A stretch of 64,000 nucleotides of DNA from a virus. The notes under the pieces are model-generated. The model was not told the DNA's origin and did no database searches. It worked only from the letters and a program-made list of their open reading frames with translations. The position numbers and the translations under genes are program-made. The DNA lies in the IMG/VR virus record IMGVR_UViG_3300033182_000709, positions 2,698 through 66,697 of that record; one strand, 5' to 3'. This document shows positions 4,850 to 27,436 of the stretch, piece after piece; within the stretch, counting starts at the first letter, position 1; each line of letters begins with the position of its first letter.

Positions 4850-6928
4850 TTATTGTCCATTATTTTTATTGACCATGAAGCATGTGCTGGGAGTATAAGA
4901 ATTTGCCCACTCTGGGCCTACATACATGCGTCCATCACCTTTATCACCTCCACCTTGACCAATTAATCTACCAACATTTACATAAGTAGGAGCAGGAATA
5001 GCTCTTTGCATGGAACGTGCAATCATATTTGCAATAACTAATGCAGAATAACGGTCTTTTCTCATTCGACCTTTTTTACCTGTATCAAGTTTTATTTCTG
5101 GAGTATCAAACCTCTCTCTTCCATTAGCTGTAACACTCACAACCACTGTAGTAAGTTCAGTTTTAAGCTCTTCAATATCCATAACACAGTCTTCAAGAGT
5201 ATCATACAGCTTCAGTGCTGCTGAATCTCCATAAGTTTCTTTTAAACTCTTGAATTGCATTTTATCTTTTTCAGTCATAAGAGAAAGTGTTACAGTGTCA
5301 AATCTAGGAAATAATAATACCTTATCTTCAATATCTTTACGAAGACCATGATTTGCTTTACTAGTCCATTCAGCACTTGCAAAATTTATATATTCTAGAA
5401 TATGATCTCCAGCAATATCATCGGTGGGTTTTTTCTTATTATCTTCAATTATGGGTAGGATTTTTCTCTCTCCGGGTTGCAGCTTATCTTCATCTGCTAA
5501 ACCTTCTGCGATGGCAAAACCACCACCTTGGGAGTCAATACCAATCCTCGCACATGGGAAGACCCTCATAAGTTCACGAACCTTCCTAACGCAGAAACTA
5601 TAATAGTCACTAACATCGGTAAGTCCCATTCTCATTCGTGCTTGAAAATCTTTTTTGTTCGTAGTCCATGAATAAACAAGTCTGTGATGCTCTGGATGGA
5701 GTTCTATGATGATTAGAGCAAAGTTATCCTGTTCACTAGCAGGGTCAATCCCATAGACATACTGCCTATCCTGCTGCCCTCTGGTGGTAACATCAAAAAC
5801 AGAAGGACAATATGAAGGCCACTCAGGTTTCTCTACATTTTTATTGTGTGCAGTTGCTGCTTCAATCAGACTTCTTCTAAAGAAACCTTGAGAATCGGTC
5901 GTGAAGCACGCACCATATTCCATTTGATAGATACCATTATGCATAGTTGCTCTGGCTCTTGTAACCTGTTGATCATCCATAAAGCCCTCTGGAATGAGTT
6001 CATATGGTATTCTCACTACTGAGAATTGTTTCCAATCTAATCTTTTCATATAATCTGGAACTTCACCACCTTCATCAGAATCTGCCATTCTGCGGAAGTC
6101 CCCTTTATTTTTTATTGTAGAACAATATTTCTTCCAGTAGTCTGCGAATGGTTCAAAGTCATAACCACACGTTCCCGCTAGAATAGATTGGTTCTGTTGT
6201 CTATCTCTGTATTCATCTTCTTGATCTTCTGTCCATCTGCCTTCTGCTTGCATCTTTTTACGCTTCGCTGCTTTCTTTACATTATCTGTAGGTTTAGCAG
6301 ACACAGCAGCAAAACCAGCAACAACAGTCTCATAGATATCCACAGGAATAGAATTAAATTCGTCAGCAATAATTGTATGAGCACGAAGACCTCTAATCTT
6401 GCTTCCATCGCCAAGAGGCACTGCCATGGCCCAAGACTCATTAATCTTCATTTGGCACCTGTCAACGTCTCTACGAGGCCCAGAAGCATCAGAACAGATA
6501 CTTTGTAAGAGTGGAGCATTTCTCCAGATTGTATCCATATATTCAAATATAACTTTGGACTGCCTAAAGGCAGAACCTACAATAACTATTTTAGTTCCCG
6601 GCACTAATGCACAGCGTAAAATGCAGTAAACCGCTAGAAGGAATGATTTACCAAAACCACGACTGGCAATATACATAGGGAATGCCTTACCCCATAGTTC
6701 TCTTAATACAACAACCTGCTCTGGTAAGAGTTCTATATTTAATAGAGTTTTAGCGGTCCAGTAGAAATACTTAGGATCTTTCATGAGAGATAGAGCATAT
6801 AGATGTAAATTATCCCTTGCTTTCTGTGGTAATTCCTTGAAGGGATTTTTTAGACCCTTAACATCCTCAGAAGATAGGTTAAGGTATGCTAGGTCATCAC
6901 TATCTACATCATAGAACTTATTTGTCAT
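4850..6928 (-). CDS. terL: terminase large subunit
   Basis: Walker A-like ASRGFGKS, Walker B IIADEF, nuclease motifs YGIDPASEQD and KDRYSAL. Confidence 0.9.
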   Translation of the reverse strand: MTNKFYDVDSDDLAYLNLSSEDVKGLKNPFKELPQKARDNLHLYALSLMKDPKYFYWTAKTLLNIELLPEQVVVLRELWGKAFPMYIASRGFGKSFLLAVYCILRCALVPGTKIVIVGSAFRQSKVIFEYMDTIWRNAPLLQSICSDASGPRRDVDRCQMKINESWAMAVPLGDGSKIRGLRAHTIIADEFNSIPVDIYETVVAGFAAVSAKPTDNVKKAAKRKKMQAEGRWTEDQEDEYRDRQQNQSILAGTCGYDFEPFADYWKKYCSTIKNKGDFRRMADSDEGGEVPDYMKRLDWKQFSVVRIPYELIPEGFMDDQQVTRARATMHNGIYQMEYGACFTTDSQGFFRRSLIEAATAHNKNVEKPEWPSYCPSVFDVTTRGQQDRQYVYGIDPASEQDNFALIIIELHPEHHRLVYSWTTNKKDFQARMRMGLTDVSDYYSFCVRKVRELMRVFPCARIGIDSQGGGFAIAEGLADEDKLQPGERKILPIIEDNKKKPTDDIAGDHILEYINFASAEWTSKANHGLRKDIEDKVLLFPRFDTVTLSLMTEKDKMQFKSLKETYGDSAALKLYDTLEDCVMDIEELKTELTTVVVSVTANGRERFDTPEIKLDTGKKGRMRKDRYSALVIANMIARSMQRAIPAPTYVNVGRLIGQGGGDKGDGRMYVGPEWANSYTPSTCFMVNKNNGQ

Positions 6929-25279: not shown

Positions 25280-25908
25280 TTGATGATGAAATTGCTTTTG
25301 TTAGTATTTGTCTTGTATTGTTTGTATCTACTTTATTAATCGCTTTTAGTTTTAGGAAAAAGAAAATGGGAACTGATATCTATTCTGGTAAAGGTGTTAT
25401 TGCTGATATTGATGATATTGTTCGTTTCGTAAATGGTAAGAATAAAAGGATAGTTATTAAAACCTGCCAAGAATGGTATAATGGAGTTCTTGATGAATAT
25501 AAAGAGAATCCAGATGAATGGAGAAAACAGGTTGTAGATGATTTTGATGGGATTTATAACATCTCTACTAAAGCAACTATTGCTGAGGTTCGTAGAGCAT
25601 TACAATCAGTTGTTAAAGTTGAAGGTGAAGTTGCAAAGTATGGTGACTGCTATGTGGAACACTCTGATTACTTGATGGATTTATTTAGTACACTATTTGA
25701 AGTATGTGGTTTAGATGTGCCATACTTAGAGAATGTTACTGCTTTTGGTAGTGCTAGGTATAATGGTTGGGATGTACCTCTTGGAGTTGCTTGTTTTATC
25801 TTTTCCTCTGACGAATGTTTTGTAAGGACTTTATCAGAAAAGGGCGAGAGCCTACAGAAAATGATTGGTCATTGTCATGAAACTGAGTGGACTGAAATGA
25901 GTTATTAA
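25243..25908 (+). CDS. hypothetical protein
   Basis: ORF track; start uncertain. Confidence 0.6.
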   Translation: MARLQGGYSCDMIDDEIAFVSICLVLFVSTLLIAFSFRKKKMGTDIYSGKGVIADIDDIVRFVNGKNKRIVIKTCQEWYNGVLDEYKENPDEWRKQVVDDFDGIYNISTKATIAEVRRALQSVVKVEGEVAKYGDCYVEHSDYLMDLFSTLFEVCGLDVPYLENVTAFGSARYNGWDVPLGVACFIFSSDECFVRTLSEKGESLQKMIGHCHETEWTEMSY

Positions 25909-25917
25909 TTATACAGA

Positions 25918-25970
25918 TTGGGATTCAGCCGATAATTTAGGCATGATCTAAATTCACGTCGTAATCCCAA
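25918..25970 (+). ncRNA. 53-nt stem-loop unit A (candidate guide RNA)
   Basis: TTGGGATT-C-AGCCGAT-AATTTAG-GCATGAT-CTAAATT-C-ACGTCGT-AATCCCAA. Confidence 0.65.
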
Positions 25971-25975
25971 CTTAT

Positions 25976-26046
25976 AGGACAGAGAATCGGTTATTCAAGT
26001 AATTCTTATAAAGTTGCCTCCGCAGGTTCAACTCCTGCCTGTCCTA
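25976..26046 (+). tRNA. tRNA-Ile(TAT), atypical short D-arm
   Basis: AGGACAG/CTGTCCT acceptor stem, GCAGG-TTCAACT-CCTGC T-arm, CT-TAT-AA anticodon loop. Confidence 0.6.
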
Positions 26047-26081
26047 CTTTTTGTTTCTTTTTACTTTTTTGGAGTATAATT

Positions 26082-26285
26082 ATGAAGACGTTTCTAGCAG
26101 GTGCATTAGGATTTTTTCTTTCTCAAACTTTATGTCTCACTACATATATAGTATGGGAAGAGTTTAGACCTCAAAAACCTATGCAGTTCAATCTTATGTT
26201 GGTTCCACCCGGAACACAGGTTGATCCTAATAAGTTTAGTAGTGAAGAAATTTATAAAGTAGAAGAATATAAAAGTGTAAGTTAG
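26082..26285 (+). CDS. small membrane/secreted protein
   Basis: GGAG RBS, hydrophobic N-terminus. Confidence 0.5.
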   Translation: MKTFLAGALGFFLSQTLCLTTYIVWEEFRPQKPMQFNLMLVPPGTQVDPNKFSSEEIYKVEEYKSVS

Positions 26286-26292
26286 TTTTATT

Positions 26293-26363
26293 GGCACTAT
26301 AGTTAAATGGTATAACTATTGATTTGTAATCAATGATTTTCAGTTCGATTCTGAATGGTGCCT
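26293..26363 (+). tRNA. tRNA-Thr(TGT)
   Basis: Canonical cloverleaf, TT-TGT-AA loop, TTCGATT T-loop. Confidence 0.9.
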
Positions 26364-26368
26364 CTTAC

Positions 26369-26442
26369 GGTTGCGTAGCTCAGTGGATCAGAGCAAGCGG
26401 TTTCTACCCGCTAGGTCGGGGGTTCAAATCCCTCCGCAACTA
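26369..26442 (+). tRNA. tRNA-Arg(TCT)
   Basis: Canonical cloverleaf, TT-TCT-AC loop. Confidence 0.9.
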
Positions 26443-26444
26443 CT

Positions 26445-26520
26445 TCCCTCTATGGGAATAAACATGTAGATGTTATTATTGAAATTATTCTGGACGGGGC
26501 TTCGATGCCCCCACCTCCAC
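26445..26520 (+). ncRNA. ssrA: two-piece tmRNA, acceptor piece
   Basis: GACGGGGCTTCGATGCCCC-CACCTCC-A 3' tRNA-like end; ACATG and GTTATTAT pair with the downstream coding piece; 5' boundary approximate. Confidence 0.75.
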
Positions 26521-26587
26521 TTTTTTTCGACCATCTCCACTATTTTTGGTATATAATAAGATATACTATTAAATAAAGGGGGTTGGA

Positions 26588-27145
26588 ATGTCAAAGATAA
26601 CTTTAACATGTGATACTTGTAACAAAGAATTTGAAAAAGAGAGGAACGAATATAACAGAAGAATAAGGTTGGGTAAGAATAAGTTTTACTGTGGGTTGTC
26701 TTGTGCTGGTAAAAGTCCTGACAATACCAAACACATTAATGATGTTAGGTCTAATTTTCCAGTTTGGAAACTTTCCAATCCAAAAAAGCATGACCAATAC
26801 AGTATATTTCGTCCAACCTTAAAAGCTATCAGACAAAGAGTCAAAGATAAACCAAAAGATTTTGACCTTACGGCTGAATATCTCAAAGAAATTTGGGATG
26901 AGCAAGACGGTAAATGTCCTTTCACTGGTTTTGACCTTGAGTTAAGAACATACTCTTCAAGACGCAACTTTAGAGATAAAACACTTCATATCAAGAGTGC
27001 AAGTCTTGACAGAATAGACAACACAAAAGGGTATGTTCAAGGTAATGTTAGATGGGTTTCTGTTATGTTTAATTTTGCTCGCAATACTTTTTCAGATGAA
27101 GATGTTGTTGAGTTTGCACAGGCCATTGTAGAAAATCGGGGGTGA
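26588..27145 (+). CDS. Zn-finger plus His-Me (HNH-like) putative homing endonuclease
   Basis: CDTC...YCGLSC N-terminus; CPFTG...SLDRIDNTKGYVQGNVRWV..FN C-terminus. Confidence 0.75.
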   Translation: MSKITLTCDTCNKEFEKERNEYNRRIRLGKNKFYCGLSCAGKSPDNTKHINDVRSNFPVWKLSNPKKHDQYSIFRPTLKAIRQRVKDKPKDFDLTAEYLKEIWDEQDGKCPFTGFDLELRTYSSRRNFRDKTLHIKSASLDRIDNTKGYVQGNVRWVSVMFNFARNTFSDEDVVEFAQAIVENRG

Positions 27146-27300
27146 ATTGGTTTCGACAGGTAATAAGATATAATAACTGCATGTGGTAGTTGGTCCAAGG
27201 CTACCTTAAAATGGACTAAACTTTATTTGCAGAGGAAACTCTTGCACTTGCAGCGTAAGCTGTCTGGGGCGGTCTGAGCCTTATTACCCAATCAGACCAG
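27138..27300 (+). ncRNA. ssrA: two-piece tmRNA, coding piece (tag AEETLALAA)
   Basis: GGGGGTGAATTGGTTTCGAC 5' end; pseudoknot GGTAG/CTACC with GTCCA/TGGAC; tag frame 27229-27258 ending TAA; 3' boundary approximate. Confidence 0.8.
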
Positions 27301-27341
27301 TTTTTATGCCCAACCGTTTTCTGTAAAAAAACGGGGATTAT

Positions 27342-27413
27342 TCCGAAGTAGCTCAATGGTAGAGCGGGTGGCTGTTAACCACTAGGTTACTGGTTCAAGT
27401 CCAGTCTTCGGAG
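27342..27413 (+). tRNA. tRNA-Asn(GTT)
   Basis: Canonical cloverleaf, CT-GTT-AA loop. Confidence 0.92.
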
Positions 27414-27436
27414 CTTTACTTTTATAGGAGTTTATT

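Follow-up and report, generated by a model that had tools for sequence, protein, structure and literature searches.

In the 64,000-nucleotide (nt) stretch of marine phage DNA analysed here (the window, part of the 81-kb IMG/VR virus record IMGVR_UViG_3300033182_000709, the completeness of which is estimated at 53% by CheckV), a gene for transfer-messenger RNA (tmRNA) is split into two pieces in permuted order, and an open reading frame (ORF) for a 185-residue protein occupies the space between them. The setting is a cluster of transfer RNA (tRNA) genes, in which ARAGORN places tRNA-Ile at 25976, tRNA-Thr at 26293, tRNA-Arg at 26369 and tRNA-Asn at 27342. The acceptor piece of the tmRNA comes first and the coding piece last (Table 1), and the gap of 617 nt, which begins right after ...CCAC and ends right before G1, holds a leader and nearly the whole ORF, the TGA stop codon of which falls on nucleotides 6-8 of the coding piece. 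The CCA of the acceptor piece is encoded incompletely. tRNA-Arg(tct) also precedes the acceptor piece in the closest relative (locus L085), and 3' processing of this tRNA would release the acceptor piece at its 5' end. 5' processing of tRNA-Asn(gtt) would trim the coding piece at its 3' end.

Table 1. Features of the split tmRNA gene and its insert (positions in the window).
Feature	Position	Strand	Basis and remarks
tRNA-Arg(tct)	26369..26443	+	ARAGORN; Rfam 68.1 bits; directly 5' of acceptor piece
tmRNA acceptor piece	26462..26520	+	RF04321 alignment, acceptor/T-arm pairing search, co-fold with coding piece
P2 strand of acceptor piece	26462-26492	+	
T-arm	26496-26511	+	stem GGGGC/GCCCC, 6-nt loop TTCGAT
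Acceptor 3' strand	26512-26518	+	CACCTCC; discriminator A at 26519
Intervening segment	26521..27137	+	617 nt; leader and nearly whole ORF; outside predicted mature tmRNA
Leader hairpin over ribosome-binding site	26525..26588	+	RNA fold -17.9 kcal/mol, z -2.55
Second tmRNA 3'-end copy	26532..26540	+	CATCTCCAC versus CACCTCCAC, 8/9
-10-like box	26547..26557	+	TGGTATATAAT; in hairpin loop; no -35 element
ORF, 185 residues	26588..27145	+	ATG start; TGA stop 27143-27145
tmRNA coding piece	27138..27310 (3' limit approximate)	+	RF04321 alignment, ARAGORN on ORF-deleted construct, co-fold; also holds PK1, the tag frame and one further pseudoknot-like element
5' acceptor strand of coding piece	27138-27144	+	GGGGGTG
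P2 strand of coding piece	27157-27184	+	
Tag frame	27229..27258	+	GCA GAG GAA ACT CTT GCA CTT GCA GCG TAA; AEETLALAA and stop; resume codon and hydrophobic ...LAA end present
tRNA-Asn(gtt)	27342..27414	+	ARAGORN; Rfam 73 bits; just 3' of coding piece

Standard tools pass over this gene: ARAGORN calls no tmRNA in the intact window, Rfam at gathering thresholds reports none there either, and a search of the phage's own record with RF04321 (tmRNA_permuted) gives no match. The misses of ARAGORN and Rfam are false negatives, caused by the 617-nt insert. In E-value mode, RF04321 aligns to 26462-27258 with 34.5 bits and an E-value of 7.6e-5 (its gathering threshold is 47), the ORF region appearing as one long insert, and RF01850 gives a partial match at 27134-27306. 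Once the body of the ORF is deleted in silico, ARAGORN calls a permuted tmRNA with the tag AEETLALAA, and L085, which has the layout of the window, reaches 65.5 bits with RF04321. The two pieces co-fold with 32 intermolecular pairs into a seven-base-pair acceptor stem, an intact T-arm and a long P2 helix that joins the pieces (26462-26492 with 27157-27184). In the acceptor stem, 27138-27144 pairs with 26512-26518, including G27140:U26516, which is the G3:U70 pair of alanine identity, and in relatives this stem covaries across an insert of about 600 nt (GGGGGTG/CACCTCC, GGGGGCG/CGCCTCC, GGGGATG/CATCTCC and GGGCGTG/CACGTCC). The two-piece tmRNA at 26462 to about 27310 is real. Long coding linkers make tmRNA genes invisible to standard tools, and the census of phage tmRNAs is therefore incomplete. 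The T-loop of the window's tmRNA has six nucleotides (TTCGAT) rather than the usual seven, a deletion visible in the Rfam alignment, and other reduced or odd T-loops (TGCAAT, GGGCAGT, ACTCGTT) occur in relatives of both the permuted and the one-piece form.

A group I intron around the ORF was considered and rejected: RF00028, a model that picks up introns in L001 and at crAss-like loci, has no match in 25800-27600 at E-values up to 10. The intervening segment would be discarded by ribonuclease P (RNase P), cutting at G27138, and by 3' trimming and CCA addition after A26519, so that the insert would not disable the tmRNA, because ordinary tRNA-type end processing would remove it. No SmpB gene is found in the 53%-complete phage record, and tmRNA function would for this reason need SmpB of the host.

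The ORF product has no model in Pfam or NCBIfam. It falls in 'endonuclease' families of PHROGs (phrog_3322, E-value 2.5e-27), and a database search returns 106 clusters, about 100 of them full-length (170-200 residues) and all unnamed or 'hypothetical'; the family has at least 311 matches on viral contigs. In an alignment of 65 members (A3), 14 residues are invariant (C8, C11, C35, C39, W103, Q106, C110, S139, D141, R142, I143, Y149, N153 and F176). The first four form an N-terminal zinc ribbon (CxxC...CxxxC) of the MYM/L24e type, and D141-R142, Y149, N153 and N162 belong to an HNH domain. The AlphaFold2 model (mean pLDDT 89) has strands at 137-142 and 154-158 and a helix at 159-165, and together with Foldseek it points to a beta-beta-alpha-metal fold: the top match is PacI (3ldy_A, E-value 9.4e-4, probability 1.0), followed by a Gme HNH enzyme, the Cas9 HNH domain, Cap5 and T4 endonuclease VII.

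The catalytic histidine that HNH enzymes generally carry at the end of the first strand is missing from this protein, for no histidine is conserved in the 65-member alignment and the invariant R142 takes the canonical position. PacI is a member of His-Me group 20, mostly viral, in which the catalytic histidine is absent and a tyrosine of the omega-loop takes its role (PMC5714182). The profile alignment sets the family motif LDRIDNSKGY..N..N against VDRSDSFEGY..N..CN of PacI, and D141-R142...Y149...N153...N162 thereby aligns with D-R...G-Y...N...N: the two proteins share the same variant motif (D-R for D-H, then G-Y in the omega-loop, and two asparagines), along with the beta-beta-alpha-metal fold and zinc-binding elements (PDB 3ldy, 3m7k). 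They differ in that identity is only about 16%, that the N-terminal module of the family is the MYM/L24e-type ribbon, and that PacI is a bacterial restriction enzyme whereas the ORF is a phage gene tied to a tmRNA. As modelled, the ORF product is a histidine-less, tyrosine-bearing PacI variant of the zinc finger plus His-Me fold, for which nuclease activity is plausible by analogy with PacI. Within the window's clade dN/dS is 0.11-0.34, which indicates that the ORF is kept by purifying selection. A second paralogue of the nuclease domain lies in the same phage record, outside the window (80074-80343, locus L240), as a 177-residue open frame with 36% identity over residues 86-180. The sequence-only reading, which knew nothing but the letters of the window and their translations, had described a complete 185-residue ORF in a gap of some 617 nt, a TGA overlapping the coding piece, a zinc finger and no sign of a group I intron core, and all of this stands; its assignment to the His-Me nucleases holds for the fold and fails for the histidine itself, which is an invariant arginine.

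Loci with full-length members of the family were gathered from viral contigs and assemblies (all relatives are metagenomic) and classified by ARAGORN and by a search for acceptor-stem partners beside a T-arm. Of the 89 loci, 66 combine a one-piece tmRNA with an ORF whose start lies 36-91 nt beyond the acceptor 3' strand (configuration B). The ORF is internal to a permuted tmRNA at 16, as in the window (configuration A), and a single locus (configuration C, L094/L095) places it immediately before a one-piece tmRNA, the stop falling on tmRNA nucleotide 8. The other six are left unclassified; ARAGORN calls a tmRNA upstream in three of them, and two are truncated where the contig ends. The 62 unique proteins with context divide into 44 in configuration B, 14 in A, one in C and three unclassified, and independent Rfam support comes from RF00023 matches in L002, L003 and L094. 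In all clade-A loci the ORF ends inside the tmRNA 5' region, its stop beginning at tmRNA nucleotide 6, 11 or 23, and in L179 it runs 55 nt into the coding piece. The siting is of the homing type, beside a conserved tmRNA whose pieces keep their covariation and an intact tag. The best reading of these loci is that, in the marine and environmental phage contigs sampled, the family has specialised in the stretch of DNA that follows directly on the tmRNA acceptor 3' end. The gap in the window is that very position, and the intervening segment is not the primary niche of the family, most of its members (44/62) lying downstream of one-piece tmRNAs. Among GenBank phages, a DNA search gave tRNA-sized matches only, and the neighbouring protein (27437-27832) has no relatives among viral contigs, hence no synteny by that route.

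The family is not confined to tmRNA loci, an idea that had to be rejected since crAss-like members are not beside any tmRNA. GenBank crAss-like phages carry full-length members (35-41% identity, annotated 'endonuclease'), there is no tmRNA near them in the three records examined, and in two of the three the neighbour is an opposite-strand group I intron (RF00028, 86-97 bits). Such intron settings, like the second paralogue in the phage's own record, are typical of homing endonuclease genes and argue against a dedicated tmRNA cofactor. The introns are unannotated (L237 2009-2278 and L238 2024-2283, in crAss-like cr128_1 and cr6_1), and RAGATH-7-assoc, RAGATH-9 and RAGATH-20 RNAs lie near crAss-like members as well (L236 2286-2383 and 3030-3187; L238 2321-2442). 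A 130-kb contig with a 61%-identical ORF (L001) has a group I intron core at 5824-6012 (RF00028, 55.4 bits) right after tRNA-Leu(tag) at 5724-5800.

The ORF is dispensable. In L194 and L228, loci of the window's own tmRNA lineage from a related phage, the pieces are separated by a gap of 17-19 nt with no ORF; the tag peptide is identical (AEETLALAA), PK1 is near-identical to that of the window, four window proteins recur in L194 (up to 85% identity) and three in L228, and in a tree of the tmRNA 5' module the two are nested in the ORF-bearing clade beside L085. A second permuted lineage has a gap of 33 nt in L176 and L185 versus 577 nt with an ORF in L179, L181 and L186 (the L179-type family member is 38% identical to the window's ORF product), and the indel between L176 and L179 leaves both flanks shared and has its right boundary inside the ORF. 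A one-piece lineage of 22 contigs that share the exact 26-nt tmRNA 5' end has the ORF in 17 and lacks it in five, where the next gene follows the tmRNA directly. Presence and absence thus alternate in three tmRNA lineages, as they do for free-standing homing endonuclease genes, and when viral-contig tmRNA genes were picked by a generic tmRNA motif, only 2/31 classifiable ones had the ORF. It is a dispensable, sporadically distributed insert. Pairwise identities of tmRNA modules with a free gap are all 66-83% and uninformative, the ORF-less loci in that comparison having been picked by exact T-arm match.

The leader of the ORF is built alike in both gene forms: some 10 nt of spacer lead to a degenerate repeat of the tmRNA 3' end (the second copy), after which come a T-run, a -10-like box and a Shine-Dalgarno sequence. 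The ribosome-binding site is buried in a hairpin whose 5' arm, the region of the second copy, pairs with GGGGG at 26578-26582 and with the A of the AUG. The same design is predicted in at least 33/52 unique leaders (mean z -2.9), several of the others owing its absence to misassigned start codons, and the arms vary by lineage yet stay complementary (for example GCCTCCACTA/TAGTGGAGGC in L115). The -10-like box occurs as TGTGTATAAT, TGGTATATAAT or TGATATATA, and 33/55 unique leaders have a TATAAT-like box (at least 5/6) after the second copy and before the Shine-Dalgarno sequence. In T4 I-TevI, I-TevII, I-TevIII and segB and in Aeh1 mobE, a hairpin blocks read-through translation and an internal late promoter gives translatable transcripts (PMC2988022). 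A candidate ORF-specific late-type promoter may likewise lie at 26547-26557. On read-through transcripts of the tRNA/tmRNA cluster, the ribosome-binding site would be paired with the second 3'-end copy, and only transcripts that start from the box in the loop would be translated, as for I-TevI and segB. A terminator scan found none.

The second copy itself is present in most of 55 unique leaders, some 20 nt downstream, and its sequence varies along with the acceptor strand of its own locus, beyond what pairing with the Shine-Dalgarno sequence needs (0/2000 permutations reach the observed value). It was considered as a target-site duplication or a displaced att-type 3' end and rejected as either, for it sits between tmRNA and ORF, some 10 nt from the real end. 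The operator of I-TevI resembles its homing site and overlaps its promoter (PMC2988022), which the second copy at 26532-26540 would, purely as a hypothesis, recall as a possible operator or target mimic. The co-varying copy is one of two features that would go unexplained if the ORF encoded a restriction-like or exclusion nuclease, acting against host DNA or competing phages and parked beside the tmRNA with no mobility of its own. The other is the fixed position at 44 divergent one-piece and 14 permuted unique loci. Although the closest solved structure, PacI, is a restriction enzyme and viral members of His-Me group 20 have been proposed as viral restrictases (PMC5714182), such a role is to our mind very improbable, and exclusion by cutting the tmRNA locus of competitors would in practice amount to homing or marker exclusion.

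Taken together, these comparisons of sequences and models suggest that the ORF is a free-standing homing-endonuclease-like selfish gene of the PacI-type HNH kind, specialised for the tmRNA 3' flank, to which we give a probability of roughly 0.68. The protein would cut ORF-less tmRNA alleles of co-infecting phages, whereupon repair would copy the ORF in, or it would bias the inheritance of the tmRNA locus, in the manner of T4 SegB with the tRNA region. The sequence-only reading had seen in the ORF a selfish nuclease that uses the intervening segment as a neutral, intron-like site: the dispensable insert with a nuclease fold, the ORF-less alleles and the missing intron core bear it out, while the segment as a special niche does not survive the predominance of one-piece neighbours. 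It had also looked to a comparison of ssrA loci, which has now yielded both ORF-less alleles of the same lineage (L194/L228) and a clean indel (L176 versus L179), and had named unrelated positions of the ORF in relatives as fatal to its view; in the marine and environmental contigs sampled the position is homologous, just after the acceptor 3' end, and it is the crAss-like members that do sit elsewhere.

A different role, as an accessory tmRNA factor that binds or processes RNA (maturing, stabilising or loading the tmRNA) and is kept adjacent for co-expression, strikes us as distinctly improbable. It would account for the near-complete linkage to tmRNA in the sampled contigs, the co-divergence of ORF and tmRNA, the purifying selection, the absence of the canonical catalytic histidine and the resemblance of the zinc ribbon to nucleic-acid-binding ribbons (MYM finger, L24e). 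However, close relatives and near-identical tmRNA alleles do without the ORF in three lineages, as do most of the sampled viral-contig tmRNAs, the crAss-like members adjoin group I introns and no tmRNA, the ORF product is structurally most like a DNA restriction enzyme, which shares its variant motif, and a ribosome-binding site that is sequestered on read-through transcripts speaks against simple co-expression.

Several observations nevertheless weigh against a homing-endonuclease-like gene. (i) With the catalytic histidine missing, the predicted activity leans on the analogy with PacI. (ii) The L176/L179 boundary suggests ORF loss rather than fresh insertion, and no case of gain by homing was seen directly. 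(iii) Upstream of the ORF, a sigma-70 promoter scan calls nothing on the + strand, and the window shows no enrichment of the -10-like motif; since neither gives support, the promoter stays a candidate. (iv) The ORF and tmRNA trees (unrooted, the latter from 130 nt and with moderate support) are broadly congruent, which points to long co-inheritance and not to frequent hopping.

The same trees bear on whether the nuclease is linked to the origin or spread of the permutation, as the sequence-only reading had raised, and here there is evidence on both sides. The ORF could pre-date the permutation, which would then have arisen around it (for instance by tandem duplication of a tmRNA-ORF unit and loss of the outer parts), so that the ORF was trapped in the intervening segment or helped to create it, and compact permuted genes such as that of L194 would be later ORF deletions; this is compatible with a nuclease function and possible, though we lean towards doubting it. 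In the ORF tree, the window's clade comprises 13 permuted rows with one-piece sisters (L093, L139), and a one-piece row (L106) falls inside the clade with a placement that the tree does not resolve, all of which would fit an ORF older than the permutation. So would the shared leader architecture, the congruence of the trees, the ORF-less L194 and L228, which look like losses in the tmRNA tree, the deletion suggested by the L176/L179 boundary, the permuted L100 (on the L001 contig), placed by the tmRNA tree among one-piece tmRNAs close to L093, and the overlap of ORF end and tmRNA 5' end with a complete one-piece tmRNA in L094, as expected of a tmRNA-ORF-tmRNA intermediate. However, no such tandem locus is found among the 89 loci, and ORF-less permuted tmRNAs are widespread on viral contigs (11/14 with the same T-arm 28-mer; 3/5 permuted genes of the generic-motif sample). 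Marine myophages and their hosts are also known to have two-piece tmRNAs without such an ORF (PMC9004378). Within the second permuted lineage a single sub-branch (L179) carries the ORF, the ORF tree requires two or more origins of permuted genes with an ORF, and in the tmRNA tree the permuted genes do not form a monophyletic group.

The overlap of stop codon and tmRNA has a further possible consequence. With the stop inside the mature tmRNA 5' end, any one transcript could serve either as nuclease mRNA or as tmRNA precursor, and the cut by RNase P would, speculatively, leave a nuclease mRNA without a stop codon, which is a substrate for trans-translation. One could go on to regard tmRNA and nuclease gene as an interlocked unit, in which maturation makes the nuclease mRNA non-stop and the rescue RNA throttles its own parasite, and which by duplication or recombination generated the permuted tmRNAs, with compact ones as remnants of ORF loss; we consider this combined scheme unlikely.

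Parts of this arrangement have parallels. One is offered by the T4 seg/mob genes in general and by T4 SegB in particular, which like the window ORF is encoded by a free-standing nuclease gene among small stable-RNA genes of a phage: segB lies between tRNA-Arg and tRNA-Ile, its product targets the tRNA intergenic region, and it has a hairpin over its ribosome-binding site and a late promoter (PMC2988022), while the window ORF lies between tRNA-Arg and tRNA-Asn, beside a tRNA-like element, and its hairpin and -10-like box follow the same design. The differences are that SegB is a GIY-YIG and not a PacI-type HNH enzyme, that the window ORF is beside a tmRNA and inside the transcription unit of that RNA gene, between its pieces and with its stop in the mature RNA, and that activity and homing have been demonstrated for SegB whereas for the present family they are predictions. 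In tmRNA genes interrupted by group I introns in the T-loop, LAGLIDADG homing endonuclease genes are found in 36/883 intron-form genes (PMC11915505). There, too, a nuclease gene lies within a tmRNA gene, in a portion that the mature RNA lacks. However, the window has no intron and relies, as predicted, on end processing of a permuted precursor and not on splicing, the nuclease family is another one, and the site is after the acceptor 3' end and not in the T-loop. 'Fractured' protein genes with an endonuclease gene between their halves (described in 2009, PMC2677866) share the two-piece gene, the free-standing homing-type endonuclease gene in the gap, the occurrence mainly in phages and metagenomes and the reassembly of products after expression; those are collinear protein genes joined by protein trans-splicing, in contrast to a permuted RNA gene held together by base pairing.

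Circularly permuted ssrA genes on marine phages were already known from the OM43 phage Melnitz and from pelagimyophages (PMC9004378), and the window's tmRNA has the same piece order and tRNA-like domain as the two-piece tmRNAs of marine myophages, Alpha- and Betaproteobacteria and cyanobacteria, but the intervening segments described for these are short and non-coding, whereas that of the window has 617 nt and codes for protein. A tRNA-Ala gene and a repetitive element are the only unusual contents that the tmRNA database paper of 2025 names for permuted intervening sequences (PMC11915505). We found in the literature no prior report of a permuted tmRNA whose intervening segment codes for protein, nor of nucleases devoted as a family to the tmRNA 3' flank. 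Introns, inteins, intergenic sites and fractured protein genes are known to harbour homing endonuclease genes; if the present reading is borne out, the discarded linker of a permuted RNA gene would be a further refuge, in which tRNA end processing replaces splicing. A sizeable unnamed nuclease family marks phage tmRNA genes, its enzymes, if active, would add new rare cutters with long conserved targets to the PacI-type nucleases, and the one-piece, permuted and ORF-less forms of close tmRNAs that occur side by side offer natural material on how gene permutation arises.

The surroundings of these tmRNAs hold some further peculiarities. In the large one-piece lineage (L002 from about 3520; L257, L245), the gene after the tmRNA 3' end and ORF encodes a cysteine-rich protein with an LDHDHD-type (endonuclease VII-like HNH) motif, and it adjoins the tmRNA directly where the ORF is absent, so that two different nuclease genes cluster at the tmRNA 3' flank. 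A dCMP deaminase gene comes right after the tmRNA module in L086 (3485-4087) and L091 (3211-3645) and downstream of the coding piece in L194, while its homologue in the window (51-55% identity) is at about 54416, 27 kb from the tmRNA; with this varying adjacency, the tmRNA module is in differing neighbourhoods among related phages. In L003, four successive tRNA-Thr genes (tgt, agt, ggt, cgt; 2038-2408) lie directly 5' of a one-piece phage tmRNA. Finally, the tRNA-Ile(tat) of the window (25976-26047) scores only 30.5 bits in Rfam, with all D-arm pairs flagged as non-standard, and may be an armless or otherwise unusual phage tRNA.

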